From contig JAFVTF010000071.1 of assembly GCA_017503375.1 (NCBI GenBank), forward strand, positions 3,036-67,035: a stretch of DNA of 64,000 bases, read 5' to 3'. The position numbers were made by a program, and so were the translations under genes. Shown piece after piece: positions 230-55,532 of this stretch (positions within the stretch are counted from its first letter, which is position 1; the number at the start of each line of letters is the position of its first letter). This stretch comes from Lentisphaeria bacterium. GTDB lineage: Bacteria > Verrucomicrobiota > Lentisphaeria > Victivallales > UBA1829. Below the pieces are notes generated by a model. The model saw only the letters and a program-made list of their open reading frames with translations, ran no database searches and had not been told where the DNA came from.

Positions 230-247
230 GATAGGAGATTCCTGTAA

Positions 248-967: not shown

Positions 968-985
968 TTTTTGTTCCTTTTGTTA

Positions 986-1789: not shown

Positions 1790-1885
1790 GTGAAAACTCC
1801 TGTAAGTGTTAATTTAACATACCATAATATAATATGTCGCAGCTGCAATGTCAAATCCTTTTCAGAAAAAGTCCGGAAACAGAGA

Positions 1886-3733: not shown

Positions 3734-3838
3734 AAGGATCTCCCTCCTGTTTTGTTCTTTTTTAATATATTTTACAGAAAGCTGACTTGCAAATGATTTT
3801 CAAGGGGACTATATTACAGAAAAAGGAGATAAACTCGT

Positions 3839-4606: not shown

Positions 4607-4851
4607 GGTGCAGGATAATAGAAAGTTTTATCACAAAAAGTGTGTTTTAACATAAAAAAGCTGAAAAAATAGCAGATAATTCTATTTTTATCATAATTAG
4701 TTCTAGAAAATATGTTGATTATGGGTTATAGTATGACATGAAAGAGAATAAATTTTTACATTAAGAGGTAATTTCAAAAGTCCGGCAAGAATTTTCAGAC
4801 ATTTTTGAAGCCTTTTGAAAATGCCTCTAAGAAAAATAGAAAGGAAGACCA

Positions 4852-8253: not shown

Positions 8254-8276
8254 TAATATATAAAGGAAAACAGAAA

Positions 8277-11663: not shown

Positions 11664-11737
11664 GGTTTTGTTTTATATACCGGAGTTTTTGACCGTTTAC
11701 TGAAAAAATGTAAAAAACTCCGGAAACAGAATTTATC

Positions 11738-11782
11738 ATATCTGTAAAAAAAATATATAATATTGCATTTTTTTACAGATAT
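11738..11782. repeat. perfect 15-bp AT-rich inverted repeat in the paralog 2/3 intergenic region
   Basis: The arm ATATCTGTAAAAAAA (11738..11752) pairs with TTTTTTTACAGATAT (11768..11782). The 15-nt loop contains TATATAAT. The repeat lies about 70 nt upstream of the 11850 start. Confidence 0.6.
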
Positions 11783-11849
11783 GGTTCTTGTTTTTCTCAG
11801 TATAATGGAGTATAATAACCGGGAATATTATTTTGAGGAGATTTCTCGA

Positions 11850-17214: not shown

Positions 17215-17997
17215 ATGAAAAGTATGAGTGTAAGACAAGACTGTTTTACCTTGATCGAGCTTCTGGTTGTGATTGCGATCATTGCAATTCTTGCCGGAAT
17301 GCTGCTGCCTGCATTGAACAATGCCAGAGAAGCGGGAAGAAAATCATCCTGTATGAACAATCTGAAATCAATCGGAACGGCTCAGGCAATGTATTCCGCA
17401 GATCATAATGATTGGATTCTTCCCTGCAGAATGCCGAACTATGAAGATTCTCAGGACCAGTGGTTTATGGTTCTTTCCGGTGTCGACAGTTCCGGTGTGA
17501 AAAGCAAAAGATATGCCGGATGGGGAACCGCTTTTTATGGACTGAAGCAGCGTAAAGGAACTTATTATTGTTCTTCAGCCAATCCTCAGAAGTCTTATGG
17601 TTGTACGACATATGGAATCAACCGTTTTTTGCTTGGTGATGATGGCACAAATTTCTTTGCCAGAAAAACTTCTTGCGTGACATCCGCAACTTCAACCGTT
17701 TTTGCAACAGACACCGCTCATACCGGAACATACCGTATGCATGATGCCGGTTCTTTTGCATTCCGGCATGGAGCAGGGGACCCCGGAGATGGTGTCCGTG
17801 GACTTGGGTCCGGTTACAGCTTAAAAAGCGGCGGTTCTGGTTATACCCCTGCAGGAAATACAAATGTTCTTTACTTTGATGGTCATGTCTCCCCTCTTAC
17901 TCTAAAACAGGTAACGATTCTTGATGGTGGAGTCAGCACCCATAAAGTTTTAAAGACTGGGTATAATATGGATCAGAAAAGTCAGCCTTGGAACTGA
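17215..17997 (+). CDS. DUF1559-family GspG-like pseudopilin-type protein
   Basis: N-terminus [52 protein letters not shown], with a C-terminal [10 protein letters not shown] motif. It is the last gene of the 4852..17997 plus-strand run. Confidence 0.85.
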
Positions 17998-18060: not shown

Positions 18061-18089
18061 TTGACAAATTATTTGATTTATGCTAAATT
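18061..18089 (+). promoter_or_regulatory. sigma70-like promoter (TTGACA-17-TAAATT with an upstream TGc)
   Basis: TTGACA at 18061..18066, a 17-nt spacer ending in TGC, and TAAATT at 18084..18089. This supports ATG 18131 as the gene start rather than the track start 18080. Confidence 0.45.
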
Positions 18090-18130
18090 GTTTGAGAGAA
18101 AATAGAACTTTCAAAAAAGGATTTTTTTAT

Positions 18131-19735
18131 ATGAGAGATTCCCGTGTAACTGATTATATTTCCCCAGTCAGGATCATTGCAACAGAAAAATGTTCCGGCG
18201 GTGATGTGCTTTTGAAAGAATGTCCGGGCCAGGCAACGACTGCCCCCCGTCCGGAGTGTGTATTGGAACCCGGCGGCTGGATCGTTCTGGATTTCGGCAA
18301 TGAATATTACGGAGGGATCGAATTGACCGTCGGCGGATATGATGCCGGAGAACGCAAACTGCTGCTGACGTTCGGGGAATCTGTTGCAGAAACCTTTTCT
18401 CATCCGGATCATTCTCATGCAATACAGGAAACGAAATTACGTTTGACTCCGTGGTCTGTTCTGTCATTTGGTAAACTCGGATTCCGCTTTGTGAAACTGG
18501 AAAATCCGGAAACATTTTCCATTGGAATTCAGGGAATCCGCTGTTGTTATGTTCACCGGGAATTTCCTGTTCAGGGATCATTCAAGTGCTCCGATCAGAG
18601 ATTGAACGATATCTGGGATGCCTCTGTCCGAACGTTAAGTTTGTGTATGCAGGGCTTTATGTGGGATGGCGCAAAGCGGGATCAGCTGGTTTGGATGGGG
18701 GATCTTTATCCGGAAATTTTTGCCTGTGCAACGATTTTCGGAAAACAGGATGTTGTGGAAAAAAGTCTTGATTTTCTTCGTGATGAAACTCCATTGCCCC
18801 GGATGATGAATGGTTGCGGAACTTATTCTTTCTGGTGGATCCTTGCACAGCGTTACTGGTATCGCCGCTTCGGTTCTCTGAAATATCTGAAAGAACAGCA
18901 GAATTACTTGAAAGATTTGTTGACTCATCTTTCCGGAATGGTCTCTGAAAGCGGAGAATTGGATTTTACCGGAGGTTATCTCCTTTTGGATTGGGCAACC
19001 GGAATCAGTCTTGAATCCGGTCCTTCTATCAGGAACGGTTCTCATGCTGTATTGCGGCTGGCGATGCTTGCTGGTGCGGAACTTTGTCATATTCTGGGGG
19101 AAGATGAAACCGCAGCTCTTTGTGAAAAAACGTCAGAAAATCTTTTGAAAAAAGAACTTCCCCTGAGTGATTGCAGTGCCGCCGCCAATGCGTTTCAGGT
19201 TCTTGCCGGATACCGGGATGCGAAAACCGTTTATGACAGCTGTTTTGCAGGAAAACTGCCTCACGGATTATCAACATTCCTCGGCTGTTTTATTCTGGAT
19301 GCCTGTGTAAAAGCCGGACACCGGAAAGAGGCTTTGGATTATATGCGTGAATATTGGGGCGGAATGCTTTCAACCGGTTCTACAACCTTTTGGGAGCATT
19401 TTGATATAGACTGGCTGAAAGATGCCGGAAGAATTGATGAAATCGTTCCGGCAGGAAAACACGATATTCACGGGGAATATGGAGAAGGTTGTTTTACAAG
19501 TTACCGGAACAGTTTCTGTCACGGCTGGGGTTCCATGCCTGCGGAGTGGCTGATCCGTCAGATTTGCGGAGTTGATTTTGTTGATTCCCGGACGGTCCGT
19601 TTTACACCGGATTTATGCGGTCTTGATTGGGTCGAAGCTCATATTCCGACAGAATTCGGGATGATTGATATTTCCATTGCTCCGGGAAAAAGTGAATTGA
19701 ATCTTCCGGATGAAATTCAACTCAAAGAGGAATAA
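18131..19735 (+). CDS. GH78-like alpha-L-rhamnosidase-type six-hairpin glycosidase
   Basis: MWDGAKRDQLVWMGDLYPE matches the DGAKRDR.VW.GD motif of rhamnosidase (alpha/alpha)6 domains. The C-terminal TFWEHFD...SFCHGWGSMPAEWL also fits. The start is set at MRDSRV (18131), downstream of the predicted promoter. Confidence 0.65.
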   Translation: MRDSRVTDYISPVRIIATEKCSGGDVLLKECPGQATTAPRPECVLEPGGWIVLDFGNEYYGGIELTVGGYDAGERKLLLTFGESVAETFSHPDHSHAIQETKLRLTPWSVLSFGKLGFRFVKLENPETFSIGIQGIRCCYVHREFPVQGSFKCSDQRLNDIWDASVRTLSLCMQGFMWDGAKRDQLVWMGDLYPEIFACATIFGKQDVVEKSLDFLRDETPLPRMMNGCGTYSFWWILAQRYWYRRFGSLKYLKEQQNYLKDLLTHLSGMVSESGELDFTGGYLLLDWATGISLESGPSIRNGSHAVLRLAMLAGAELCHILGEDETAALCEKTSENLLKKELPLSDCSAAANAFQVLAGYRDAKTVYDSCFAGKLPHGLSTFLGCFILDACVKAGHRKEALDYMREYWGGMLSTGSTTFWEHFDIDWLKDAGRIDEIVPAGKHDIHGEYGEGCFTSYRNSFCHGWGSMPAEWLIRQICGVDFVDSRTVRFTPDLCGLDWVEAHIPTEFGMIDISIAPGKSELNLPDEIQLKEE

Positions 19736-34473: not shown

Positions 34474-34623
34474 AAAATTTTTCTCCTGATTTTTAGAGTG
34501 ATATTCCATTAATTTACCCTCACTGAGCAATATATTCAAGGCGTTTTTCTTCCGAAAAAGTGAAAAATAAAAAAAAAGTGAACGTTTTATCGTATTTTTT
34601 TGCTATTTTCTTGCTTGCGGAGG

Positions 34624-34652
34624 TTGCTTTTTTCAAAATAGGGATATATTAT
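34624..34652 (+). promoter_or_regulatory. candidate promoter for the pseudopilin operon (TTGCTT-17-TATTAT)
   Basis: TTGCTT at 34624..34629 and TATTAT at 34647..34652, about 40 nt upstream of ATG 34692. Confidence 0.3.
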
Positions 34653-34691
34653 ACAACAAATGAACCAGACAAAAAACAAGGAGGATGATGT

Positions 34692-35369
34692 ATGAGAAAA
34701 AAAAGACATCTTTCCAAATTCAACTTGATTGAAATCGTGCTTGCCATAGGAGTGGTTGCTTTAGGTATGACAGCGGTCCTTGCTCTGCTGCCTCCCGCGC
34801 TGAATGCAAATATTGATTCCCAGGGCGATGCAAATGCCGCTGAAATTGCATCCAATGTGATTACCTATATAGATAAAATTGCTCAAGAGAGTGCAAAAGA
34901 TACTTCTGAATTCAAAAAAGTAGAAGGCGATACCCGGACGGCTGCTGAGATTGCCGCTGCGGATGAAACAGCGTGGAAAACAACTTTAGAGAATCATTTT
35001 GAGACAACTGCTCCTGCAGAAGATTCTGTAAAAGTTTCCGGGGAAAGTTTTGGAAACAAAATGGCTGCTCCGTTTTCTCAATTTAATATTGAATCCGGAA
35101 CTCCAACAAAACCCGGCTGGATGACTTATGTAAAAACGGAAGCTGACGGAACGGAAACAGCTGTCGCTAATGTTTATGTCTGGATGAAAAATATTACAGC
35201 CGGTGCAGCAGATCATGAAAAAATCAACGGCATCGGTTCCGTAACTGTTGTCCGCAGCTGTTACCGTTTCTATATCAAAGTCTGCTGGCCCGCTGATGCA
35301 CCCGCCGATGCAGAGAACCGTCAGGAGCGTACTTATGTCCATGAAGTCCTCCGTCCTGTAAAGAATTGA
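34692..35369 (+). CDS. GspI-like minor pseudopilin (enlarged)
   Basis: The N-terminus MRKKRHLSK-FNLIEIVLAIGVVALGMTAVLALLPPAL is a pilin-type helix with Glu+5. AAGGAGG RBS. First gene of a tightly coupled seven-gene operon. Confidence 0.7.
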   Translation: MRKKRHLSKFNLIEIVLAIGVVALGMTAVLALLPPALNANIDSQGDANAAEIASNVITYIDKIAQESAKDTSEFKKVEGDTRTAAEIAAADETAWKTTLENHFETTAPAEDSVKVSGESFGNKMAAPFSQFNIESGTPTKPGWMTYVKTEADGTETAVANVYVWMKNITAGAADHEKINGIGSVTVVRSCYRFYIKVCWPADAPADAENRQERTYVHEVLRPVKN

Positions 35370-35387
35370 TAACGCAGGAGAAAGTTT

Positions 35388-36191
35388 ATGACAAAAACAA
35401 TGAAAAAACGGATTCTGAAATTTACAATCGTTGAAATTCTTGTTGCGATGTCTGTTTTCGCAATTTTGATGCTGATTATCATGCAGATATTCGGTTCTCT
35501 TCAAAGCGTTTGGACAACCACATCGAACCGGACCCGGACAGCACAGAATGCCAATGTTATCATGAATATGCTGGTCGCAGATTTCCAGTCGGCTTATTAC
35601 AGTTTGGATGCAAAAGCCGAAAGTTCCTGGTGTTATTATCAGGGAGGAGCGGAATTGAGTGCATCCCAACCTCTCTGGTTCATAACAAGCCGTCAGAAAT
35701 CAATCCAGTCTGCAAACAGTGCTCAGGTGTTGACGGGCTACTGGATTGAAGAGGTAAAAAAAGATGATGTGGATTTGTTGGTATTGAAAAATCTGACAAT
35801 CTCCAATATGGATTATAAGATGATAGATGGAAGTGCTTTGAAAACATCTGAACTTTTCAACTATAAGTCTGTGAGCGAACCGGATGCAAAATTGAAAAAT
35901 GTTGACAGCTCGCTTAAGAAAATTGCTGTGGCGGTTGATGACAACATTGTTTCTTTCACGATTACACCGTATGTTAAAAGTGTAAATTCAACAAGTGGAG
36001 CAGTAAATTTCACCCAGCAGAGCGGACTTTGTAAAAAATTACCGTCTTATGTGGAAATTAAATTGCAGATACTTGATGATGATCCCTCTGTCAGAGAGGC
36101 TTATAAAGATGCCACTACTGATGAACGGAAGAAAATGATCCGGACATATACCCGCATTATCGAGATCAATCGCGGTCAATACTATGAATAA
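35388..36191 (+). CDS. GspJ-like minor pseudopilin
   Basis: MTKTMKKRILK-FTIVEILVAMSVFAILMLIIMQIFGSLQSVWTTTSNRTRTAQNANVIMNMLVADFQSAYY follows the GspJ N-terminal pattern. CAGGAG RBS. Confidence 0.7.
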   Translation: MTKTMKKRILKFTIVEILVAMSVFAILMLIIMQIFGSLQSVWTTTSNRTRTAQNANVIMNMLVADFQSAYYSLDAKAESSWCYYQGGAELSASQPLWFITSRQKSIQSANSAQVLTGYWIEEVKKDDVDLLVLKNLTISNMDYKMIDGSALKTSELFNYKSVSEPDAKLKNVDSSLKKIAVAVDDNIVSFTITPYVKSVNSTSGAVNFTQQSGLCKKLPSYVEIKLQILDDDPSVREAYKDATTDERKKMIRTYTRIIEINRGQYYE

Positions 36192-36205
36192 TCAGGAGGT
36201 GCAGT

Positions 36206-39200
36206 ATGAGAAAGATTAAATTCCTGAAAAACACAAAGAAATCCCAGCGCGGAGTTGCGTTGATATTTGCCCTGAGCATTCTCGGTTTGATGGTTGTCCT
36301 CGGGCTGACATTTGCTTCTCTTTCATTTTCAGAGCAGGCTGTTTCCCGCGGAAGTTCTGAACAGGAAGCCGCAAAGATCATGGCAAAGTCTGCCGTGAAC
36401 CGGATTATTGCTCTTTTGGAGAATAATACGGCAATTACGGAATCCGATAAAATTGTTTCCGGCGGCGATCCGAATAACTCCAATCACTACGATTTTCTGT
36501 GGAAAATGATTGCCTATCACGGGGATGTTCCCGGGGCTGGGGATATGCAGAAAAAGCTGGAAGACCGGATTAAAAACGGAACAGATTCTCCGTATTGGCA
36601 GTATATCATTGCTCCGAACAAAGATGGAGAGGATGAGATCGTGGGAAGATTTGCTTATGCCGCTTATCAGCCGGTCGGTCTGCTGGATCCTTATGTATCT
36701 GCTAAAAAAGCAACGGAAGGTTCCTCTCCAATCACCCGATTTGGGATGACACCAGATGAAATTGATTTGAAAGCTCTTGTTGGTGTAACAGTTCCCGGCG
36801 GTTCCGGGAATTTATCTGCCGATGATATTAATACACTTGGCTCAAAGAACGCTGACTCCGGCGTTTCTTCAGATATCGGCACTCCTGCGGCTCTTTTTGA
36901 GAGATTTTCTGCAACCACCATGACAGCCTTAAATTCAAACCTTCAATATCTTCCGTTAAGAAATAAATTGACGGCCTCCTGGTTCAGTATTCCGAGAACG
37001 CCTGCTTTGCCGGAACGGTACTACTACAAACTTCCGGCTGAGACAAATGAAAAAGAATATCATCGTTTTCCATTGAACCTTACACCTGTCGATTGGGGAA
37101 AAATTGGCATGGATCAGTTTACTTTGCAAAAGATGGATGATTCTGCTAATCCATCAGCGACTCTTTATGATGAATCTGCAGCCGCAAATGAAAAGGCTTC
37201 TCTCGGTATCCCGTGGTTCAATAAGGCCGATGATGATACCCGTCAAATTGCTGCAAACTTCCTGAGTTATTTCTCTCCGATTCCGGAGAATCTGACAGAA
37301 AAGAAATACTGGAGCGCAGATAATGAATCTGCGACATACACCGCAAACATGCGTACCCCGTACATCAATGACCTTTTGATGCATGTAAAACTGAATATGC
37401 TGGTTACTGACAAAATTGATGGTGATGTAGATAATCCTCAATACAAAAAGATTTTTACGGTTGAGATCAAACCGGAAATAGATGTTTATATCGAACTGGC
37501 AGATCTCTACGGAAAATCTCTGGACAGTATCTCATCTCTGACATTCAAGATGAAAGCCTTGAAAGACTTAAAAGCGAAACAAACGGCAAATGCTGTCATC
37601 TCTTTCAATGGCGGAGATATGCTTGCTGAAAATGCAATGCTGAAAGATATAAACTTTACAGTTACGAGTCCATCCGGTAATAAGTTCAATGCGGCAAATG
37701 GCGATATTTCCAATGTTTTCCCGGTGTTCCAAAAGACTGTAACAGCAACAAAGCCTTTTACAGCAACGATCACTGTACAGATGACACGTCCGGAGCTTGA
37801 AGGCGGCGGCTACGGTGATGCAACTTGTGATCCTGTTGAATTCAATGAGCCGCTGCAGACTTTCGTTATGGAAAAGCTCTCTCTGCTCATGTCTGCTAAA
37901 TTCAACGGCCGCTCTGCAGAACTCCCCATAGATTTGGCGAATATTTCGCTTGAAAAGACTGTTCCGGTTCTGGGTGCGGAGATCCCTCCGTCAAATCAGG
38001 TTTCTGATAAATGGGCTCCCTTCAAGCTGAATATCAATAACAAGGGAGAATATGAAGATGCCTCCCAGAAAGAACAGGAACGCAGTGTAATGTTCCGTTA
38101 CCGTGCAATAGATTCCGCAGCGAACCTGAAGCAGGAACACTGGGTGGAGTCCACCCCCGAATTTTTCAAGGATTCCGTTGATATTACGACGATTGATTCC
38201 TATCCCGGGTTGAACAATTTTTCAGAATTGAAAGCAGAAGGTCTGCTGACTCTTACAAAAAATGATGCACTTGATTATCATACATTGACCGCCAAAGTCA
38301 ATGGAACTGACAAGACATTCTTTGTAGATAAAGAAAAAGAACCTGCGGATAAAAATGCCGTGGAGGGGTATGGTGCGGTTCTTTCCACATCTTACATCCG
38401 TGGGCAGGTTTCCAATACAACGGAAGTTCAGTCTCCCTGGGAAATCGGCTTTATCCATCGCGGCATGCCGTACCAGACATTGAACATCAAACGGTTCAAT
38501 AAAAATTCTGCGGAAATCGGAAAATATGAAGATGGCGATGCGAATATTTTCGATTATATCAAAATCCTTCAGAAAGAAGATGATGGAACGGTTGCCGAAG
38601 AAAACAAAATTCATGCAAGAGGTCTTGTCAATCTTCAGAAGATTTCCCATCAGAATGAAAATTCTGAAAATGGTGGAAATCTTCCGGCAGCATACGCATT
38701 TTTCTCCAATATTGATCTTGGCTGGAAAATGGATAAGAATAACAATAAATTTGAACCGAAGACTGGGATAACATGGGAAAATACGCTGGCGCAGGCAAAA
38801 AATATTGTCAAAGAAATTGTAAAAGTCGTTGACAAGCCGAATTTTGCATTGAAGTCCAGAGCGGCAATTCTTGATCCTGTTTTGAATTTGCAAAAAGTTC
38901 TGGCAGTCGGGGATGATGATGCGGCAAAAGAAGAATTGATCGGCCGTTTTATCATGCTGACAACAGCAGATCCGGCAAAGGTGAATCTGTTCTCTGATTT
39001 CCTTGTTGTGACAGCGATTGCACAGCGGATTCAAATCGGTTCATCCATGTTCCCGGATAAGGAATGGCTGAATGACGGAACATTTGATTCCTTCCCGAAT
39101 AATCCGCCGTCGAATCTTCCGAACAATCTGACTGACAGAATTCAGCAGAATGCATGGATCGAAGCCGGTTACGGATATCGGAATTACAATGAATTCTGGC

Positions 39201-39388
39201 GGTTCAAGAAGAATGATTTTGTGAGTGCTGTAATGAAGCCGGATAAAAATGATTTAACTGCAGCGAATCGCAAAAAGAAGTTTTATCCAGGCTATGACAG
39301 AATTCTTTCCACTCAGAAAGTAATCGCATGGCTCCGGAAGAATGCAAATGGAAAATGGTATATTGAAAGGTTGGATTATGTTGATTAA
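36206..39388 (+). CDS. giant GspK/PilX-like minor pseudopilin (1060 aa)
   Basis: The N-terminus KKSQRG-VALIFALSILGLMVVLGLTFASLSFSEQAVSRGSSEQEAAKIMAKSAVNRIIALL matches the GspK/PilX_N pattern QRGvAL..vL and lacks Glu+5, as GspK does. It is followed by about 1000 aa with no recognisable motif. AGGAGG RBS. Confidence 0.7.
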   Translation: MRKIKFLKNTKKSQRGVALIFALSILGLMVVLGLTFASLSFSEQAVSRGSSEQEAAKIMAKSAVNRIIALLENNTAITESDKIVSGGDPNNSNHYDFLWKMIAYHGDVPGAGDMQKKLEDRIKNGTDSPYWQYIIAPNKDGEDEIVGRFAYAAYQPVGLLDPYVSAKKATEGSSPITRFGMTPDEIDLKALVGVTVPGGSGNLSADDINTLGSKNADSGVSSDIGTPAALFERFSATTMTALNSNLQYLPLRNKLTASWFSIPRTPALPERYYYKLPAETNEKEYHRFPLNLTPVDWGKIGMDQFTLQKMDDSANPSATLYDESAAANEKASLGIPWFNKADDDTRQIAANFLSYFSPIPENLTEKKYWSADNESATYTANMRTPYINDLLMHVKLNMLVTDKIDGDVDNPQYKKIFTVEIKPEIDVYIELADLYGKSLDSISSLTFKMKALKDLKAKQTANAVISFNGGDMLAENAMLKDINFTVTSPSGNKFNAANGDISNVFPVFQKTVTATKPFTATITVQMTRPELEGGGYGDATCDPVEFNEPLQTFVMEKLSLLMSAKFNGRSAELPIDLANISLEKTVPVLGAEIPPSNQVSDKWAPFKLNINNKGEYEDASQKEQERSVMFRYRAIDSAANLKQEHWVESTPEFFKDSVDITTIDSYPGLNNFSELKAEGLLTLTKNDALDYHTLTAKVNGTDKTFFVDKEKEPADKNAVEGYGAVLSTSYIRGQVSNTTEVQSPWEIGFIHRGMPYQTLNIKRFNKNSAEIGKYEDGDANIFDYIKILQKEDDGTVAEENKIHARGLVNLQKISHQNENSENGGNLPAAYAFFSNIDLGWKMDKNNNKFEPKTGITWENTLAQAKNIVKEIVKVVDKPNFALKSRAAILDPVLNLQKVLAVGDDDAAKEELIGRFIMLTTADPAKVNLFSDFLVVTAIAQRIQIGSSMFPDKEWLNDGTFDSFPNNPPSNLPNNLTDRIQQNAWIEAGYGYRNYNEFWRFKKNDFVSAVMKPDKNDLTAANRKKKFYPGYDRILSTQKVIAWLRKNANGKWYIERLDYVD

Positions 39389-40133
39389 GAAATTCACAGT
39401 TGTTTTTCTGACCGTGATTGCGGCGGGGCTTTCTGCTCAGTCTCTGAAACCGATGACTCAGGAAGAATTCAGGTACTATGAGTATCAGGTGTCTTCCGGA
39501 AAAATTGAACAGTACAGGAATCCTACCATGAATGAACAGGCTTGGAAGGATTTGATGAATGATATTATTGCTCAAATCATAGAAGTTCATGTTCCGCAGA
39601 ATATCCGTGATTGGAAACAGAAAGGCTCTGCCAAGGTTCCCAGCCGGAATAAAATCCGGCTTCTCGCACATCGTCTGCGGACATTGATTGAGAATCCCGA
39701 ACTGGTAGAAGTTTCCAGACAGCAGCTGAATTGGTTCAAAAATATTGGAAATGGATTCATCGAACTGGAAAATATCCAGACAAAAATGGTTCGTGCTGTC
39801 ATGGGTGGAAACGAAAAAGCATACAAAGAGCTGCTTTATCAGTACATGATGACTTCAAAAAAACTTAAAAAGCTGATGGATGACCGGGAAAAATGGCAGT
39901 TGTCCCGGAAAGAACTTGATTTCGTCCGCAAAAAAAATCTTGCTGTCCGCAGGAAAAAAGCAGAGGAACTCAAACGGCGGTATGAATTGACCAGAAAACT
40001 GTTGAAAGAAGGAAAACTGACTTGGACCATAAAGCCGAAGAATTCTGATAAATCCAATCAGAAAAATGATAAGAAAGCCGGACAGAAAGAAAATAAGAAG
40101 CAGATGAACAATAGAAGAGGAGCAGGACGATGA
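39378..40133 (+). CDS. secreted helical, Lys-rich hypothetical protein inside the pseudopilin operon
   Basis: The start is set at MLIKKFTVVFLTVIAAGLSAQS (signal peptide), overlapping the previous stop by 11 nt. The C-terminus is highly basic (KKAGQKENKKQMNNRRGAGR). Confidence 0.6.
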   Translation: MLIKKFTVVFLTVIAAGLSAQSLKPMTQEEFRYYEYQVSSGKIEQYRNPTMNEQAWKDLMNDIIAQIIEVHVPQNIRDWKQKGSAKVPSRNKIRLLAHRLRTLIENPELVEVSRQQLNWFKNIGNGFIELENIQTKMVRAVMGGNEKAYKELLYQYMMTSKKLKKLMDDREKWQLSRKELDFVRKKNLAVRRKKAEELKRRYELTRKLLKEGKLTWTIKPKNSDKSNQKNDKKAGQKENKKQMNNRRGAGR

Positions 40134-40963
40134 AAAGAGTTTCATGTTATTCACTGGTCGAACTTCTGACCGTTATTGTGATTGCCTCCATATTAATGGC
40201 TATAGCAGTCCCTGCAGTTTCCAGTATGATCCGGGGCAGTGCAACAACTCAGGCCGGACGGGAATTGATGAGCCGTATCCGTATTGCCAAAGGGTATGCT
40301 GTTTCCCGGCAGACTCCTGTTGCAATCGTGTTTTATACAACTGAAAAACCTTCCGGGGAAACTCTTTCTTCCAATTATGCATGTTCTGCATACCGGATCT
40401 GTTCTGTGAAATATGTTGAACCCAACAGCAAGAACAATATGTGGCAGGGATGGGTCTTCCAGGATTGGGTCAGTGAATGGTATTTCCTTCCGCGTGGAAT
40501 CGCAGTTGGTTTACCTGAAACAATGACAGCTGCTTTGCCTGCTGAATTGAGCAATGTTCTTCCGGGTACCGCTGAATCAGCAGATTCTTTGATCCGTATT
40601 GTAAAGGACAGCTCTTCTGAAGAAGATTTTTTCAAGGTGAGTACAGAAAAAGGGAGCGGAGTCTCTCCTGTTTACAACTGTGATCTTTCTGATATTTACC
40701 CGGAAAACAATAATCCTGTTGTTACATTCCGGAATGCGATCGTATTTAATGCTAACGGCATGATGGAAAAACCGAAGAATCTGACAAAGAAAGAGAATGA
40801 TGACGGAGCCCTTTATCCGGAAAAAGCGGTTATCATCCCCCTCAGAACTGCACTGATAGAGGATAACACTGTAACAGTGGAGGGCGCAGCTAACGAGTAT
40901 ATTCCTGTCAGAGTTGATCCTTCCGGAAAAACATATTTCTATGATGGTTATGTCAGTTATTAA
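40130..40963 (+). CDS. GspH/FimT-like minor pseudopilin (enlarged)
   Basis: ATGA overlap with the upstream gene. MKRVSC-YSLVELLTVIVIASILMAIAVPAVSSMIRGSATTQAGRELMSRIRIAKGYAVSRQTPVAIVF follows the GspH pattern. Confidence 0.7.
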   Translation: MKRVSCYSLVELLTVIVIASILMAIAVPAVSSMIRGSATTQAGRELMSRIRIAKGYAVSRQTPVAIVFYTTEKPSGETLSSNYACSAYRICSVKYVEPNSKNNMWQGWVFQDWVSEWYFLPRGIAVGLPETMTAALPAELSNVLPGTAESADSLIRIVKDSSSEEDFFKVSTEKGSGVSPVYNCDLSDIYPENNNPVVTFRNAIVFNANGMMEKPKNLTKKENDDGALYPEKAVIIPLRTALIEDNTVTVEGAANEYIPVRVDPSGKTYFYDGYVSY

Positions 40964-40980
40964 GGGTGGTGTTCTTTTTT

Positions 40981-41244
40981 ATGAAGCTTGAAAGATTGAT
41001 ATTGGGGCTGCTTCTGCTTCCCCTGGTTATTGCGATTTTTGTTATCTTATTTCCGCTGATTCTGATCTTCGGGATCATTGCGCTTTTCTTGCGCGGAAAT
41101 ACGGTTCGTACATTTGTCAAAACGAAAACACTCCGCAGTCAGACGTCAGAACCAAATCGGGAAGATGACGTGATTGATGTTGAAGTGATACGTTCCGAAG
41201 ATATCGGAGAAAAGAATGATATATCCGGACGGTCGCTCCGCTAA
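40981..41244 (+). CDS. small membrane protein
   Basis: MKLERLILGLLLLPLVIAIFVILFPLILIFGIIALFL gives two predicted TM helices. The track start, GTG 40966, is an alternative. Confidence 0.5.
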   Translation: MKLERLILGLLLLPLVIAIFVILFPLILIFGIIALFLRGNTVRTFVKTKTLRSQTSEPNREDDVIDVEVIRSEDIGEKNDISGRSLR

Positions 41245-42262
41245 ATGGTATCATAATCAGAGAACCATTAAAATTCTTTTATTCTCGACAGTTCTTGTCA
41301 TTGCAGGATTTCTCTTTTGGTTTTTCAATAAGCCGGCTGTTCTGGAGGATTTATCCGGAGGGAAATATCCGGAAACATTCCGTACAGTTTATCGTCCTTT
41401 GCAGAAGGAACTCCTTTTACTGCATGCAGAAGGTTTTTTTGAGCCTTCTGCAGCTCAAAGTGCTGTACCTGCCGTGTTTTTGGAATGGTATATGGCTCCC
41501 GAAACGCGATTGATCATTCATGAAAAAGATTTTTCTCCTGATATGTACCATTTACAGATCCGGAAGAGTCTGCAAACCGGAATGCGGGAAAAATGTATTT
41601 TCTTTTCCGAACCTTTGGAGAATCCGGTTCCCGGTGATTTATTCCGGACACTGACAGGTTGTTTCAATAAATATCTGGCACGGAAAAATTATAAAAAATG
41701 TGTTGATTTACTTGAGGATATGTTCTGTTTTTCCTCGCTTATATTGAATTCAAATGTTGCAGAAAGCTATTTTCTGTCAGAAAGTGTTAAGTATGGCAAA
41801 TTGTATGAACAGACTTTTGAAAAAAATCAGAAAGCTGCGTCGTTCTGGCGGAAAGTAAAATGGAAACTGGCTGGAAAATATCTTTTTTCCATGCATGGAA
41901 TCTATCGTCTGGAATGTCAGAAAATTATGGCTGACTACGAAAAAATCCGTATCAGCGGAATTCACATCTTTGATGAGAAGCCTGAAGGCAGTTCTCAATT
42001 TTTGGATGGCGTTGCAACATTTTCTGTTACCAGAATGATAGACGGCATTTCAACTTCGATCACTGATTATTTTTATGATGTTGATCGGGATCAAACCATG
42101 ACTCTTTCCATGTTGAGACGATTGCTCAACGACGGGATTTCTCCGGCGATGCTGGAACGTCCGAACCGGAAGATGAGCATCCGTTGTTTCCGCCGGATCA
42201 CAGATGATGCGGAAATTCTGTCATCTGCAATCCTTTATCTTGCCAATTCTTCGGATAAGTAA
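41216..42262 (+). CDS. membrane-anchored hypothetical protein, last gene of the pseudopilin operon
   Basis: 348 aa with one N-terminal TM segment (IKILLFSTVLVIAGFLFWFF) and no recognisable motifs. It overlaps the upstream ORF. Confidence 0.6.
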   Translation: MIYPDGRSAKWYHNQRTIKILLFSTVLVIAGFLFWFFNKPAVLEDLSGGKYPETFRTVYRPLQKELLLLHAEGFFEPSAAQSAVPAVFLEWYMAPETRLIIHEKDFSPDMYHLQIRKSLQTGMREKCIFFSEPLENPVPGDLFRTLTGCFNKYLARKNYKKCVDLLEDMFCFSSLILNSNVAESYFLSESVKYGKLYEQTFEKNQKAASFWRKVKWKLAGKYLFSMHGIYRLECQKIMADYEKIRISGIHIFDEKPEGSSQFLDGVATFSVTRMIDGISTSITDYFYDVDRDQTMTLSMLRRLLNDGISPAMLERPNRKMSIRCFRRITDDAEILSSAILYLANSSDK

Positions 42263-42265: not shown

Positions 42266-42907
42266 TTATTTTCCGAGATCTGCATTCAAAACGGGAGCAT
42301 CTGCCGGACGGGACGAAATGATATCTCTGATGATATCTTCTTTTTCTGCAGTAGCATGACCATCTACATAAAGGATAACGCCGCGTCCGTTGTGACGGCC
42401 TGTGAATCTTGTGTCGTCATTTGCAGAACTGGCTGTATGGACGTAGTATGCCCGCTTATTTTCAAACATATATCCCTTGGATGATGGAGCTTTGATCTTT
42501 GTTACTTTTGCTTTGATCGTACCATCATCTTTGCCATGGATTCCCAACAGGTAAATACCAAAAGAGAAATACTGTTTTCCGGGATTCCAGTCATTGGGAT
42601 CTGTCAGAGATGGACACTTATAATATTTAACAAATTCTGTTTCCGGAACGAATCCACTGTATCTTGCATAGTAAAGAGTTGAGGGAGTTCCTCCGACGCG
42701 GTGGGCAAGAATAAAGTCATCATTGTTCTGAAAATACATTGTCAAATAGAGTCCGACCTGTTTTTTATTGGAAATACAATTAGCCTGGCGTCCGGATTCT
42801 CTTGCGTTATTCAACGCAGGAAGCAGCATCCCTGCAAGGATTGCAATGATTGCAATCACAACCAAAAGTTCGATCAATGTAAAACTTCTCTTGAAAAAGA
42901 TTTTCAT
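42266..42907 (-). CDS. DUF1559-family GspG-like pseudopilin-type protein
   Basis: [44 protein letters not shown]. The C-terminal [16 protein letters not shown] fits H-X9-DG exactly. It is convergent with the pseudopilin operon, with 3 nt between the stops. Confidence 0.85.
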
Positions 42908-51003: not shown

Positions 51004-52314
51004 ATGTCCGAACAACTCGCAATTTATGGTGGAACCCCGTCCGTTGATGTCAGCAAAGTCGCTCCCTGGCCGCCTGTCAACGAAATTGATGAAAAACTTG
51101 TTCTTGAAACTCTTCGCGGAAGAGTTCAGACCCGTGGTGAACAGAACCTTGCATTTGAAAAAGAATTCCGTGAATGGAATGGGAATGATTTTGCCCTTTT
51201 CACAAACTCCGGAACAGCAGCTCTGCACATGTGTCTCGTCGGCTGCGGAATCGGGGCAGGGGACCATGTTCTGGTGACAGCATACAGCTGGAGTTCCAGT
51301 GCAACCTGTATTCTTCACCATGATGCTATTCCGATTTTTGTTGATATTGATCCCGAAACCTTCCTGATGGATCCGGATAAGATCGAAGCAGCAATCACCC
51401 CGCGTACCAAAGCGATCATCGTTGTTCAGCTCCATGGTCTCTGCAACGATATGGACAAGATCAATGCGATTGCAAAGAAACACAATCTGAAAGTCATCGA
51501 AGATGCATGTCAGGCACACGGTGCAATGTACAAAGGCAAAAAAGCCGGTACTCTCGGTGACTGTGCAGCATTCAGTTTCAATCAGAACAAGTGCTTGAGC
51601 TGCGGCGAAGGCGGTATGTTTGTAACCAACAGCCAGGAAATTTTTGATCAGGCTGCAAAACTCTGGAGTTTCGGAGAAACTGCACGTCCGGAACAGCGCC
51701 GTGACTATCACGCTTATGCACTCGGCTGGATGTACCGCAACAATGAAATCACTGCAGCTTACGGACGCGCTCAGCTTTCCAAATATGATTTCTATTTCAA
51801 CACACTTCGCAACAATGGCGAATATCTGCTGAAGAATCTTGCCGGAACCCCGAATCTGATGCTTCCCTATGAACCGGAATGGGCAACTCATAACTGGTAT
51901 AACTTCAACCTCCGTGTTGATTTCGCCAAGATGGGCGTGACGGATCCTGCTGAACAGGTCAAATTCCGTGATGCAGTTGCGGCGGCTCTTTGCGATGAAG
52001 GTATCGTTGCAAGTGTCTGGCAGCGGTTCATTCTTCCTGAAATGACAGTGTTCGCTGCCAAGAATGCTTACGGTATGGGTTATCCCTGGAGCATTCCCGG
52101 CGCAGATGAAGGTGTTGATTACAGTCTTGAAAAATTCCCGAATGCTCTGGAATACAGCCGGAAACATATTTCCATCGTTCACACTCTGCGCGCTCCCAAC
52201 GGGCTTGACATTGCTGAACAGGTTCGTCAGGGTATCGCAAAAGTCTTCAACAACCTTGACAAGATTGATCCTGAAAAGATTCAGGCAATTGTGGAAGCCC
52301 GGAGAAAAAAATAA
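51004..52314 (+). CDS. DegT/DnrJ/EryC1/StrS-family PLP-dependent aminotransferase
   Basis: FEKEFREWNGNDFALFTNSGTAALHM, IIVVQLHGLCNDMDKI, and the PLP-lysine region AFSFNQNKCLSCGEGGM are present. Confidence 0.8.
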   Translation: MSEQLAIYGGTPSVDVSKVAPWPPVNEIDEKLVLETLRGRVQTRGEQNLAFEKEFREWNGNDFALFTNSGTAALHMCLVGCGIGAGDHVLVTAYSWSSSATCILHHDAIPIFVDIDPETFLMDPDKIEAAITPRTKAIIVVQLHGLCNDMDKINAIAKKHNLKVIEDACQAHGAMYKGKKAGTLGDCAAFSFNQNKCLSCGEGGMFVTNSQEIFDQAAKLWSFGETARPEQRRDYHAYALGWMYRNNEITAAYGRAQLSKYDFYFNTLRNNGEYLLKNLAGTPNLMLPYEPEWATHNWYNFNLRVDFAKMGVTDPAEQVKFRDAVAAALCDEGIVASVWQRFILPEMTVFAAKNAYGMGYPWSIPGADEGVDYSLEKFPNALEYSRKHISIVHTLRAPNGLDIAEQVRQGIAKVFNNLDKIDPEKIQAIVEARRKK

Positions 52315-53975
52315 TGAAAAAATCAGTTGCATTGTTTTTAACAATTGCAGCAGCTTGTTTTTTAAGTGCGTGTAAATCATTTGATGCCTGTGACAAGCAG
52401 GCATCAGATGCCGGACTTAAAATAGGCTGGGGCAAGCGTTCGATTGCTCAAAAGGGGCCTGTTCCCATTACTGGTCAGTTCCATTTAAGGGTTTCCCAAG
52501 GGGAGTTCACTCCGGTGATTGCAAGTGCTCTTGCGATATCCAATGAAAAAGATTCTGTGATCTTTGTAACTTTGGATGTTGTTTCTTTTTCTGCTGTTGC
52601 TCTGAAAGAAATTCAGGAAACCCTGAAAAAAGAAGCTCCGGAGATTCCTGTGGAAAAAATCATTATCAATTCCACTCATACTCATGCTGGACCTTCTGCT
52701 GCCGGTCATTTCAAAGGATTCCCCATTGATGTCAAAGTCATTCCGTCTGAAGATGTACGGAAGTTTCAGGTTCGTCAGGTTTCTGATGCGATTAAAGACG
52801 CATGGAAAAACCGGGCTTCCGGTTCCATTTCCTATGGTTACGGTTTTGCAACCACCGGACACAGCCGCCGTGCTGTTTACCTGAAAGATGTCGGCAGAAT
52901 TTTCGGCGGAACTTCCGGAATGGCAATGAACGGTAAAGCTGTTATGTACGGCAGAACGAACTATGAATTGTTTGACGGTTATGAAGCCGGAACCGATGCG
53001 TTCATCAACTTGCTTTATACTTTTGATAAAAAAGGAAAACTGACAGGTGCAATCATTAATGTACCGTGTCCATCCCAGACAAACGAAAGTGTCTGGATGC
53101 TTCATGCAAGTTTCTGGCATAATGTCCGTGAAAAACTTACAGCCAAGTATGGGAATATCGGTGTAATCGGTCAATCCGCAGCAGCCGGGGATCTTTCTCC
53201 GCGTCAGCTTCACTATAACAAAGCGGAACTCCGCCGTTACAAGCTGAAGTATAAGGATAAGATCGAAGCGTATTGCAAAAATCCGATGAAGAATCCTTTT
53301 GCCCGGAACTGGACGAAAGAAGAAGTCCGCGCCCAGGCAGAATCTGATGCCGTGGAACTGATGCGGGCGGAAGATATTGCAAACCGTATCGTGGCTGCCT
53401 TTGATGAAGTGCTGAGCTGGGCAGGTCAGGAAAAGTTCAGTAATCCTGAATTGAAACACGAAATCAAGACAGTCAAGCTTTCCCGCAGATTGTTCCCGAA
53501 AGTTCTTGTTGATGAAGAAAAACAGAAACATGCCGAAGTCATGAAACTGAAATTCAAGACTGACGGAAATGAATGGGAACGTCTTGTCCACAACAGCCGT
53601 CTCAACAGCCGCAGAAGAAGAATCGGCGGAATTCTCACCCGCTACGAAAATCAGGCAAAGAATCCGACTCTTACTACAGATATCCATGTGGTCAGACTTG
53701 GAAATATTGCGTTTGCGACCAACCGTTTTGAACTGTTCCTGGATTATCAGCACCGGATTCAGGCGCGCAGTCCTTTTGAACAGACTTTTATCGTTCAGCT
53801 CGTGACCGATGTCAATGGTGTCGGAAGTTATCTCGCCACTGAAAAAGGTGTTGCCAATAAAGGTTACAGTGCCACACCTTACTGCAACCAGGTTTCTCCC
53901 AAAGGCGGACAGGAACTTGTAGAAGAAACTTTGAAGGCTCTTGATGGTATAAAACCTCAAAAAATAAAGGAGTAA
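52314..53975 (+). CDS. neutral/alkaline-ceramidase-N-terminal-domain-like hydrolase, lipoprotein form (tandem copy 1)
   Basis: The lipoprotein-like signal MKKSVALFLTIAAAC/FLSAC offers two possible lipoboxes. LKIGWGKRSI...PITGQF...VIFVTLDVVSF...IINSTHTHAGP matches the ceramidase N-domain pattern. Its ATG overlaps the DegT stop by 1 nt. Confidence 0.65.
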   Translation: MKKSVALFLTIAAACFLSACKSFDACDKQASDAGLKIGWGKRSIAQKGPVPITGQFHLRVSQGEFTPVIASALAISNEKDSVIFVTLDVVSFSAVALKEIQETLKKEAPEIPVEKIIINSTHTHAGPSAAGHFKGFPIDVKVIPSEDVRKFQVRQVSDAIKDAWKNRASGSISYGYGFATTGHSRRAVYLKDVGRIFGGTSGMAMNGKAVMYGRTNYELFDGYEAGTDAFINLLYTFDKKGKLTGAIINVPCPSQTNESVWMLHASFWHNVREKLTAKYGNIGVIGQSAAAGDLSPRQLHYNKAELRRYKLKYKDKIEAYCKNPMKNPFARNWTKEEVRAQAESDAVELMRAEDIANRIVAAFDEVLSWAGQEKFSNPELKHEIKTVKLSRRLFPKVLVDEEKQKHAEVMKLKFKTDGNEWERLVHNSRLNSRRRRIGGILTRYENQAKNPTLTTDIHVVRLGNIAFATNRFELFLDYQHRIQARSPFEQTFIVQLVTDVNGVGSYLATEKGVANKGYSATPYCNQVSPKGGQELVEETLKALDGIKPQKIKE

Positions 53976-53978
53976 AAA

Positions 53979-55532
53979 ATGGCAAATCAATTGAAAATCG
54001 GATGGGGAAAACGTTCCATCGCACCGGATGCAGCCACGCCCATTCCCGGACAGTTCAATATGCGGGTATCTCTGGGCAGTTTCACGCCGGTGCTTGCAAA
54101 CGCTCTTGTGCTGGAAAATGGCGATGATGCAGTGATCTTTGTTTCCTGCGATGCTGTTTCAATTTCTGTTGAAATTCTCAAGAAAGCGCAGGCTTTTCTG
54201 GCAGAAGATATTCCCGGATTCCCCGTGGACAAGATCATTCTGAACTCCACTCATACCCATGCCGGACCGGGTGACAGAGATATGTCTCCGTATCCCCACA
54301 GCATAGATGTTCTCGGTCCGGAAGATGTAAAAAATTTCATCGGACGTCAGATTGCTGATGCGGTCAAAGAGGCATGGGAAAAACGTGCCCCCGGTGCAAT
54401 TTCCTACGGCTACGGATTTGCCGTTACCGGACACAGCCGCCGGGTAATTTACAGCGATGACTACGGTCTGCGCGGAAATGGAAAGCCCGGTCTTGCCATC
54501 AATGGTCATGGCGTAATGTACGGCAATACCAATGATGACAAGTTTGAAAGCTATGAAGCCGGAACCGATGCTTTCATCAACCTGCTTTATACCTTCGATG
54601 CCAACGGAAAACTTTCCGGAGCGATCGTCAACGTGCCGTGTCCCTCCCAAACAAACGAACATGCGTGGGTGTTCCATGCAAGTTTCTGGCACAATGTCCG
54701 GGAAAAACTTACTGCCAAGTATGGTGATATCGGAGTTGTCGGACAGGCTGCGGCTGCAGGGGACCTCTCTCCCCGTCAGCTTCATTACAGAGAAGCTGAA
54801 GCCCGCCGTTACCGTTTGAAGTATAAAGATAAGATCGATGCTTATATGAAGAACCCGATGTCTTTGCCCGGTGCTGAAAACTGGACCCCGGAACAGCGTC
54901 GTGTACAGAGTGAATATGAAGCGATTGAACAAATGCGTGCTGAAGATATTTCCAGCCGTATTGTTGCAGCATTCGATGAAGTGCTGAGTTGGGCTGATCA
55001 GGAAAAATTCTCTGCACCCGTTCTCAAGCATGAAGTCCGCACTGCTGAACTTTCACGCCGCATGTTCCCGAAAGAAATGATGGAAGAGGAAAAACGGAAT
55101 CTCGAAACCTTCATGGCTGAAGAGTATCTTACAGAGGGCGATAAGTGGGATGTCCTTTATAACAACTCTATTCTTCACAGTAAACGGTTCCGCTGCGGCG
55201 GTGTTGTTTCCCGTTATGAAATCCAGGAAAAACAGCCGACGATCACTTCTGATATCCATGTCGTCCGGATCGGAGATATTGCGTTCGCAACCAACCGGTT
55301 TGAACTTTACATGGATTATCAGCACAGGATTCAGGCACGCAGTCCCTTTGAACAGACCTTTATCGTTCAGCTTGTGACCGGACCCAATGGTATCGGCAGT
55401 TATCTGGCAACGGAACGCGGGGAAAAGAATAAAGGGTACAGCGCATCTCCGTACTGCAATCAGGTTTCCCCGAAAGGCGGGCAGGAACTGGTGGAAGAAA
55501 CGTTGAAAATCCTTAACGAGGTAAAAGAATAA
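53979..55532 (+). CDS. neutral/alkaline-ceramidase-N-terminal-domain-like hydrolase, no signal peptide (tandem copy 2)
   Basis: It starts MANQLKIGWGKRSIAPDAATPIPGQF with no hydrophobic leader. ILNSTHTHAGP is present. It is collinear with copy 1 (FINLLYTFD, NVPCPSQTNE, HASFWHNVREKLTAKYG). Confidence 0.65.
   Translation: MANQLKIGWGKRSIAPDAATPIPGQFNMRVSLGSFTPVLANALVLENGDDAVIFVSCDAVSISVEILKKAQAFLAEDIPGFPVDKIILNSTHTHAGPGDRDMSPYPHSIDVLGPEDVKNFIGRQIADAVKEAWEKRAPGAISYGYGFAVTGHSRRVIYSDDYGLRGNGKPGLAINGHGVMYGNTNDDKFESYEAGTDAFINLLYTFDANGKLSGAIVNVPCPSQTNEHAWVFHASFWHNVREKLTAKYGDIGVVGQAAAAGDLSPRQLHYREAEARRYRLKYKDKIDAYMKNPMSLPGAENWTPEQRRVQSEYEAIEQMRAEDISSRIVAAFDEVLSWADQEKFSAPVLKHEVRTAELSRRMFPKEMMEEEKRNLETFMAEEYLTEGDKWDVLYNNSILHSKRFRCGGVVSRYEIQEKQPTITSDIHVVRIGDIAFATNRFELYMDYQHRIQARSPFEQTFIVQLVTGPNGIGSYLATERGEKNKGYSASPYCNQVSPKGGQELVEETLKILNEVKE

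Follow-up and report, generated by a model that had tools for sequence, protein, structure and literature searches.

A putative H/I/J/K minor pseudopilin set with a 1060-residue K-type subunit in a Lentisphaeria bacterium

We analysed a compact seven-gene operon in a 64,000-nt stretch of contig JAFVTF010000071.1 from a Lentisphaeria bacterium (hereafter the window, in whose numbering all operon coordinates are given). We consider it fairly probable that the products of this operon include a full H/I/J/K complement of minor (pseudo)pilins that nucleates and caps a type IV filament, most likely a type II secretion system (T2SS)-type pseudopilus whose machine is encoded elsewhere in the genome. 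Descriptions of T2SSs and type IV pili normally feature either a small GspK/PilX cap or a PilY1 adhesin as a separate protein; the candidate K-type subunit of this operon is a protein of 1060 residues. The gene structure is as a first-pass annotation of the window had described it, with seven close-packed open reading frames (ORFs) on the + strand between 34692 and 42262, lengths of 225, 267, 1060, 263, 277, 92 and 348 aa, and short junctions:

34678..34684, + strand: Shine-Dalgarno-like AAGGAGG, 5' of g1 (sequence reading)
34692..35369, + strand: g1, candidate I-type (GspI/PilV-like) minor pseudopilin, 225 aa (sub-threshold NCBIfam matches, position 5' of the J-like gene)
35388..36191, + strand: g2, predicted J-type (GspJ/PilW-like) minor pseudopilin, 267 aa (fold of the AlphaFold2 model by Foldseek, sub-threshold NCBIfam matches)
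36206..39388, + strand: g3, putative giant K-type tip subunit, 1060 aa (K-type N-terminal helix, hhalign to a GspK profile)
39378..40133 (alternative start 39342, 263 aa), + strand: g4 ('X'), predicted secreted Lys/Arg-rich helical protein, 251 aa (family hhalign, signal peptide)
40130..40963, + strand: g5, candidate H-type (GspH/FimU/ComGD-like) minor pseudopilin, 277 aa (sub-threshold NCBIfam and Pfam matches)
40966..41244, + strand: g6, predicted membrane protein, 92 aa, GTG start (hydropathy)
41216..42262, + strand: g7, predicted bitopic membrane protein, 348 aa (hydropathy)

The junctions from g1 to g7 measure +18, +14, -11, -4, +2 and -29 nt, and AGGAGG-like Shine-Dalgarno sites lie ahead of g1, g2, g3 and g5. 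A 152-nt A/T-rich intergenic region 5' of g1 (34540-34691) is the presumed promoter region; a promoter and terminator scan gave counts equal to those of shuffled sequence, and no signal was assigned. The complete seven-gene order is retained in relatives whose g3 proteins are 41-58% identical to that of the window (loci L001-L003 and L005-L007), and the upstream genes S4-RecX-L31-RF-GDSL-GDSL are also retained in relatives at this distance. Because the arrangement persists at such divergence, the seven ORFs are real conserved genes and not chance ORFs.

A single N-terminal hydrophobic segment was found by hydropathy in each of g1, g2, g3 and g5. The best NCBIfam matches of g5, g1, g2 and g3 (the second-best in the case of g1) all belong to one pilin-like cassette, named Verru_Chthon, to its proteins D, B, C and A respectively, which supports their reading as an H/I/J/K set. 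Such a set, with every member larger than its classical counterpart, had been proposed before, and the fold predicted for g2, the N-termini, and the sizes in E. coli K-12 (GspI 125, GspJ 195, GspK 327 and GspH 169 aa) bear this out.

The case for a K-type subunit is carried by the N-terminus of g3. Residues 1-74 aligned to a 41-sequence GspK profile with 95% probability (hhalign, E = 2e-8); the profile was used because the g3 family against the lone E. coli GspK sequence reached 40% probability, which was too weak. The N-terminus reads QRG|VALIF (QRGVALIFAL, against QRGVALLIVL in E. coli GspK), and the family that it defines carries Gly at -1 in 72/72 members, Ala at +2 in 72/72 and Phe at +5 in 67/72, with no Glu+5. 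Homologues of PilK/GspK invariably lack Glu+5, which marks the apical subunit (Ellison et al. 2026, PMC13533445). By its sequence, g3 is thus predicted to be the K-type member of the set, as the first-pass annotation had it. Among curated models, NCBIfam gave the cassette A protein (1.1e-5) and then GspK (NF037980, 17.8 bits against a cut-off of 130, over the helix only), and Pfam, including T2SSK (PF03934) and T2SSK_1st (PF21687), gave no match to g3. In 49 members of the K family, T2SSK_1st was matched by four and T2SSK by one, all weakly; the weak PilX_N, TIGR02600 and GspK matches did not extend past the N-terminal helix, the longest members included.

Past that helix, the case for homology between g3 and GspK is only suggestive. 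Sub-optimal hhalign alignments were collinear, pairing g3 residues 344-394, 656-670 and 723-742 with GspK residues 136-186, 176-190 and 213-231 (E = 0.04-0.4), and they contain, in GspK order, the motifs DWIDxD...GAED, S-EL-x-V and INxNT. The AlphaFold2 model of g3 (predicted local distance difference test (pLDDT) 86, predicted template modelling score (pTM) 0.81) starts with a 63-residue N-terminal helix, followed by a beta-hairpin (132-154), a helical region (160-356), long beta-hairpins and beta-rich domains (386-710), and a mixed alpha/beta C-terminal third with final strands at 1031-1045 and 1051-1059. Conservation across the family peaks at 21-60, 141-160, 281-300, 341-400, 741-780, 901-960 and 1021-1060 and is lowest at 441-620, 661-700 and 961-1020, and the ends of 66 of 72 members fall in register with the g3 C-terminus. 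The conservation of this C-terminus agrees with the beta-strand that GspK, ComZ and CpaL are described as supplying in cis from their C-termini (PMC13533445).

K paralogues of one genome repeat this pattern, with 57-70% identity at 721-840 and 39-58% at the C-terminus, against 12-39% at 441-620 and 0-31% at 961-1020. The picture drawn by these alignments is of a constant scaffold with variable modules, and the spread of the blocks along the chain suggests several insertions within a K-type scaffold. To the approximately 700 extra residues of g3, no Pfam, NCBIfam or PDB domain could be assigned. We rejected a toxin-like or phage-fibre reading of g3, as its best PDB matches (leukocidins and Gram-positive pilins) had TM-scores of 0.04-0.16 and root-mean-square deviations above 19 A, and the viral structures of BFVD gave no significant Foldseek match.

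Behind the N-terminal helix of g2, the structure model points to a GspJ-type, two-lobed pilin fold. The AlphaFold2 model (pLDDT 80) was built from a shallow 17-sequence alignment; when compared with the PDB by Foldseek, its top 12 matches were all XcpW, EpsJ or TTHA1219 (probability 0.99-1.00, TMt 0.41-0.63), and those beyond the top 12 had probabilities below 0.1. The prediction of this fold follows from the make-up of the 12 matches, every one of which is a J-type pseudopilin or the type IV-like equivalent from Thermus. The first-pass annotation had made its reading depend on a pilin fold behind the N-terminal helices, and the g2 model provides one. At the sequence level, NCBIfam gave cassette C (2.6e-10) and GspJ (TIGR01711, 2.6e-4, 20.9 bits against a cut-off of 64.85), both sub-threshold, and the g2 family profile matched type IV pilin N-terminal helices in the PDB, with the GspJ globular domain marginal only. 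A 'hypothetical protein' that NCBI lists for a Lentisphaeria metagenome-assembled genome (MAG) matches g2 with 100% identity.

The assignments of g1 and g5 are sub-threshold only. For g1, NCBIfam gave PilV (5.6e-5, 23.6 bits against a cut-off of 52.2), cassette B (9.5e-5) and GspI (0.08), PilV being the type IV pilus counterpart of GspI; among 24 g1-like proteins, cassette B was matched by 22, PilV by 15 and XpsI by one. The g1 family profile had no match among PDB sequences. An I-like gene always lies directly 5' of the J-like gene in the compared loci, and it is mainly by this position, together with the sub-threshold matches, that g1 appears I/PilV-like. For g5, NCBIfam gave cassette D (5.7e-12), ComGD (9e-6) and GspH (TIGR01708, 4e-4, 20.4 against 80 bits), and Pfam gave GspH (PF12019, 2.2e-3, 18.9 bits against a cut-off of 21). 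Its family profile reached type IV pilin helices in the PDB down to 7e-10, with FimU (4ipu) marginal at E = 0.18. These matches make g5 a candidate H-like subunit, which sits after K and X in the window; at most loci the H-like gene precedes the I-like gene.

All three small subunits depart from the classical prepilin cleavage site. The N-terminus of g1 reads ...SK|FNLIEIV, with Phe+1, Glu+5 and Lys at -1. Phe or Tyr at +1 and Glu at +5 are present in 100% of the I, J and H families (Lentisphaerota alignments, L006-L084), and the residue at -1, which is K in g1, K in g2 and C in g5, is Gly in 2/75 sequences of these families. I-like proteins have F, Y, K, N or H there, J-like proteins K, F, S, R or N (and Gly in 2/25), and H-like proteins S, C, R or Y. 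TIGR02532 and PF07963 remained below cut-off for g1, g2 and g5, and the full GFxxxE motif is lacking in them, Gly-1 being absent. Invariant Gly-1 is confined to the K-type family, while GspG to GspK of E. coli all carry it. Classical prepilin peptidases require Gly at -1. The sequences suggest that the prepilin peptidase has changed in specificity or else that the subunits go unprocessed.

Three further pilin-like genes of the window, with DUF1559/N_methyl signatures, have near-identical N-termini with C, C and S at -1 (248-967 on the - strand, 17215-17997 on the + strand and 42266-42907 on the - strand). Two of the DUF1559 genes lie among glycoside-hydrolase and AraC-regulator genes (GH127 at 1886-3733, WbsX-like at 16054-17190 and rhamnosidase-like at 18080-19735). 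The one at 42266-42907 is convergent with g7, the two stop codons being 4 nt apart, and is served by a perfect sigma-70 consensus at 42990-42962 (TTGACA-17-TATAAT with TG).

The giant K protein had been presented as an oddity of one orphan operon, and this does not hold. An exhaustive profile search over representative clusters at 50% identity returned 1836 clusters at E<=1e-3 and 457 at E<=1e-30, with lengths mostly of 850-1250 aa; all named members are 'hypothetical proteins' of Lentisphaeria or Victivallis, and the family falls outside every Pfam and NCBIfam model. A locus scan limited to one genome per species and a restrictive search pattern found 79 K loci, nearly all of them in Lentisphaerota/Victivallales MAGs and often in 2-4 copies per assembly. 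Judged by these sequences, the giant K is the normal form of the subunit in Lentisphaerota. We called genes in all fetched loci and classed them with iterated hidden Markov models. The prevailing order among the 79 loci is H-like, I-like, J-like and giant K, which is the classical order GspH-I-J-K, and the K gene directly follows a J-type gene in the window and at nearly all of the 79 loci. The order of the window, I-J-K-X-H, is shared with its close relatives and with a distant Lentisphaera sp. locus (L025). The gene order is conserved for H-I-J-K, often followed by X; conservation does not extend to a seven-gene unit, since g6 and g7 have homologues at six loci only, those of the closest relatives.

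A number of these loci have unusual layouts. On a Victivallaceae chromosome (L031, OY761536.1, positions ~1-14320), the order is H-H-I-J-K(996)-X(189)-K(1063)-X(195)-K(940), where three tandem K genes, the first two each with an X gene behind it, share one I-J pair, a layout that would suit K-X modules that can be swapped. At L024, L030 and L032 (MHBE01, CAXXMS01), I-J-K sets stand head-to-head as divergent inverted duplicates, and some of the I-like genes are enlarged to 350-540 aa. Typical H-I-J-K-X cassettes also occur on two short contigs labelled Oscillospiraceae (L015, CAZZCN01) and Patescibacteria (L027, JBAZWB01), which are probably mis-binned. The largest K proteins, of 1162-1246 aa, form a subgroup (L040, L045, L048, L049, L051, L061, L064, L068, L069, L073 and L079) with conserved downstream synteny, in which the 3' neighbour, in place of X, is a conserved protein of ~206-214 aa with an 'ILADGEFPR...CCDGAADKL' N-terminus, a motif that suggests a thiamine-pyrophosphokinase-like protein. 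These ~206-214 aa proteins were rejected as X candidates, being unrelated housekeeping genes.

A link to secretion machinery was found outside the window, for a paralogous set in one lineage. At L054, L067 and L077, a same-strand H-I-J-K set with a K of 1100-1119 aa lies 2-5 kb upstream of GspC-like, GspD and GspE genes; that K is followed by a guaA-like gene, genes for three proteins (255, 433 and 234 aa), a GspC-like gene, GspD with an N0 domain, and the GspE ATPase. L074 and L076 retain the nearer part of this T2SS-linked cluster. Here too, beside a T2SS core, the K is giant, and a GspK of ordinary size is absent. Within 10 kb of the other ~70 loci there is no GspC/D/E core, apart from a GspE-like gene close to L025 and weak matches to an ATPase or a secretin near L010, L013 and L057.

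The three proteins preceding the GspC-like gene are conserved and had no Pfam match, the 255-aa one being secreted (14816-17623 in L067; also in L054, L074, L076 and L077). Their position and size would allow them to be divergent platform components of the GspL/GspM or PilM/N/O type. A 155-aa gene 5' of H in L067 was considered as GspG and rejected, since it is deaminase-like and has no pilin N-terminus.

The fourth gene appears to encode a recurrent partner of K. It had been read as a secreted Lys-rich helical protein; the secreted, Lys-rich character stands, and the more likely start is ATG 39378, from which the product has 251 aa and the gene overlaps g3 by 11 nt. This start is preferred over 39342 because it opens directly into the signal peptide MLIKKFTVVFLTVIAAGLSAQ and agrees with the gene call of the L002 orthologue, which reproduces the 11-nt overlap. 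The protein contains 14.3% Lys, and 36% K+R in its last 80 residues. Its orthologues aligned with the family found 3' of K (hhalign, 97.4% probability, E = 1.1e-11, 157 columns), which consists of secreted proteins of ~145-275 aa. Of 73 full-length K genes, at least 27 have X as their immediate 3' neighbour, a figure that is an underestimate, and profile searches of the family gave no Pfam or PDB match. As for the last two genes, g6 is hydrophobic over residues 1-47 and matched no Pfam or NCBIfam family, and g7 has one predicted transmembrane segment (~16-43); a TcpD_dom match of g7 (1.7e-3) covered only the transmembrane segment, was below cut-off and was left unused.

Several results weigh against the reading of the operon as a T2SS-type tip set. 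The scores of its products against curated models are all far below cut-off and stem mainly from the N-terminal helix, and the matches between g3 and GspK past this helix are individually non-significant. In the whole-chain Foldseek search of g3 against the PDB, GspK was absent from the top 50, and the g3 family profile found nothing among PDB sequences. Processing of g1, g2 and g5 by a prepilin peptidase is not assured without the canonical Gly-1. Finally, the absence of machinery genes from the operon, already remarked in the first-pass annotation, extends to the whole window: Pfam searches of essentially all of its large ORFs returned no GspE/PilB, GspF/PilC, secretin or prepilin peptidase, and the large ORFs outside the operon are housekeeping and glycoside-hydrolase genes. 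The embedding in a classical gsp operon (gspC-G, L, M, O) is likewise lacking in the window.

The strongest alternative is that the cassette primes a surface type IV pilus used in adhesion, motility or uptake, with g3 merging the roles of PilX/PilK and of a PilY1/PilC adhesin; we regard this as possible, though distinctly less probable. It would accommodate PilV as the best curated match of g1, the matches of g5 to ComGD and to a PpdD-type pilin, and the resemblance of g2 to the Thermus type IV-like pilin TTHA1219. A tip protein of ~1000 residues is also of PilC/PilY1 size. K subunits obtain their last strand from PilY1 or supply their own (PMC13533445), and pilus-tip receptors that have a K-like module as their base are already represented by ComZ and CpaL. 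However, the sole machinery that adjoins a paralogous cassette is T2SS-like (GspC-like, GspD with N0, GspE), Pfam found no PilY1 beta-propeller or vWA signature in g3, and a limited examination of the loci identified no PilT-type or PilMNOPQ genes. Moreover, a sequence-based distinction between T2SS and type IV pilus subunits is unreliable at such a distance.

It is unlikely, in our judgement, that the proteins are not filament subunits at all and that the pilin-like helix is an uncleaved inner-membrane anchor or export signal, leaving g3 tethered to the membrane, for instance for glycan capture. The lack of Gly-1 in the I, J and H families and in the three DUF1559 proteins of the window would be expected under this scheme, most cassettes have no machinery within 10 kb, and DUF1559 pilin-like genes of the window lie among glycoside-hydrolase genes. 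Nevertheless, the universal Phe+1 and Glu+5 of the I, J and H families are the signature of filament assembly contacts, and the K-specific loss of Glu+5 makes sense only for a subunit that is first in a filament. The conserved H-I-J-K order, the GspJ-type fold predicted for g2, and the linkage of a paralogous cassette to GspC-like, GspD and GspE genes also speak for filament subunits. A decaying or silent duplicate of a T2SS-linked minor-pseudopilin set is highly improbable: several paralogous cassettes do occur per genome and no promoter rose above shuffled controls, but the seven ORFs are intact, tightly coupled and equipped with ribosome-binding sites, ORFs and synteny are kept at a g3 identity of 41-58%, and the functional motifs of the N-termini and of the K core are invariant.

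We thus favour a T2SS-type H/I/J/K tip set, for which a course of assembly can be proposed by analogy with GspHIJK and PilHIJK. The I-type g1 and the J-type g2 would form a dimer. The K-type g3, lacking Glu+5, could enter only as the first, apical subunit, and would probably complete its own pilin beta-sheet in cis with its conserved extreme C-terminus. The H-type g5 would then link the I-J-K trimer to the major subunit. The resulting complex may nucleate the filament and stay at its tip while a T2SS-type machine encoded elsewhere polymerises it; we infer the formation of the trimer, the cis strand complementation, the tip location and the use of a distant machine. The ~700 extra residues of g3 would form a tip-exposed head, for which a binding or catalytic role can be envisaged. 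X may act as a secreted or periplasmic partner of K, whether as its chaperone or as an accessory of the tip, and g6 and g7 may be lineage-specific membrane accessories.

More tentatively still than the surface pilus considered above, the cassettes can be seen as libraries of exchangeable tips (H-I-J-K with or without X), in which a constant K scaffold bears differing heads, one T2SS-type machine is re-tipped, and prepilin processing has changed lineage-wide. Some genomes have several K-X pairs behind a single I-J pair. The different tips could serve different substrates or ligands, such as the polysaccharides degraded by these gut bacteria. As to processing, Gly-1 would be gone from all Glu5-bearing subunits and retained only in K.

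Two other groups of genes in the window are worth recording. Three tandem paralogues at 4852-15239 (+ strand; 1133, 1128 and 1158 aa) weakly match GH123_N and Melibiase_C and look like an expanded glycoside-hydrolase-like array. At 52314-55532 (+ strand), two tandem genes of 553 and 517 aa weakly match the N-terminal domain of neutral/alkaline ceramidase.

The operon had further been proposed as a module not described for the classical T2SS. This goes too far, since K-type or tip pilins with a modular build are known, among them ComZ, CpaL and PilB (PMC6561018, PMC11870444, PMC8179133, PMC13533445) and NCBIfam already names an analogous cassette, with an A protein of ~1300 positions, in the Planctomycetes-Verrucomicrobia-Chlamydiae (PVC) superphylum. 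The kind of system is already known, and modular or oversized tip pilins are established. What is new is a very large, uncurated Lentisphaerota family of ~1000-aa K subunits as the standard of a lineage, together with multi-copy, mostly machinery-unlinked H-I-J-K(-X) cassettes, a conserved partner X, and an altered residue at -1; a literature search on the Verru_Chthon cassette and on Lentisphaerae pseudopilins found no description of a giant-K cassette system. Lentisphaerota are a phylum common in animal guts, and PVC bacteria carry hundreds of pilin-like genes. The family offers an annotation handle for thousands of 'hypothetical proteins'; as an extreme case of cis fusion, it also puts the 'C-terminal strand licensing' model of 2026 to a natural test. 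If the variable heads bind glycans or secretion substrates, the cassettes could couple secretion or capture in PVC bacteria to polysaccharide use, and the loss of Gly-1 poses a concrete biochemical question about the prepilin peptidase of the lineage.

Among known systems, the closest is the GspH-I-J-K tip of the T2SS (3CI0 of E. coli; XcpUVWX of P. aeruginosa), which has the same four subunits in an order shared by most Lentisphaerota loci. The likeness includes the predicted J fold of g2, the RG|VAL... N-terminus of g3 without Glu+5, a conserved C-terminus consistent with a cis strand, extra non-pilin domains in K (compare the GspK alpha-domain), and the GspC-like, GspD and GspE genes that adjoin one paralogous Lentisphaerota set. 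In contrast to GspHIJK, K has 1060 instead of 327 aa, I, J and H are 1.4-1.8 times larger, and no curated GspH, GspI, GspJ or GspK model passed its cut-off. The I, J and H types lack Gly-1, a secreted partner X is added, several cassettes occur per genome, and the window has the order I-J-K-X-H with no linked machinery.

The Verru_Chthon cassette (D, B, C and A: TIGR02596, TIGR02598, TIGR02599 and TIGR02600) was curated from Verrucomicrobia/Chthoniobacter and is functionally unstudied. At the family level, its A protein was matched by 31/49 K-like and its B protein by 22/24 I-like proteins; the A model has 1296 positions, so that the protein at the K position is giant there too, and both lineages belong to the PVC superphylum. 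Nonetheless, the window proteins all failed its cut-offs (23.6/332.3 bits for A, 22.6/51.4 for B, 40.1/256.5 for C and 46.1/70 for D), and the A matches end at about position 63, within the helix, even in the seven longest K family members. Because the scores are sub-cut-off and the A match covers the helix only, the Lentisphaerota K proteins form, by sequence, a separate uncurated family.

Larger heads on tip subunits are best documented in pili. ComZ of Thermus thermophilus has a ~380-residue domain inserted before the last beta-strand of a GspK-like module, is argued on steric grounds to fit only at the filament tip, and is encoded beside a partner minor pilin (PMC6561018). It is about half the size of g3 and belongs to a competence pilus, and its insert is a DNA-binding beta-solenoid, whereas g3 is modelled as mixed alpha/beta without any solenoid signature and had no sequence or Foldseek match to ComZ. 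CpaL/TadG, the tip subunit of Tad pili (~600 aa, ~626), lacks the assembly-critical acidic/aromatic residue and consists of an N-terminal pilin-like module, a ~470-residue middle adhesin and a C-terminal strand that completes the pilin sheet (PMC11870444, PMC13533445). It differs in forming part of a T4c filament, in having a vWA domain with MIDAS and two beta-rich domains, where g3 has no vWA signal, and in having no H, I and J partners of the Gsp kind.

PilC/PilY1, together with PilHIJK or FimU-PilVWX, likewise places a ~1000-residue protein at the tip of an I-J-K-primed filament (PMC13533445). PilY1, however, does not belong to the pilins and provides its C-terminal strand in trans, while g3 is itself a predicted K-type pilin; in Pfam searches the PilY1 beta-propeller was absent from g3 and from 49 family members. 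M. xanthus reportedly has several alternative minor-pilin/PilY1 clusters. In PilB and PilC of S. sanguinis, a pilin module bears a bulky second module that the tip displays, and the survey of modular pilins that describes them counted >1200, called this an underestimate, and predicted many undetected cases with modules that have no database signature (PMC8179133). Those modular pilins, the largest of 860 aa, carry a C-terminal module on a short linker, whereas the blocks of g3 are spread along the chain.

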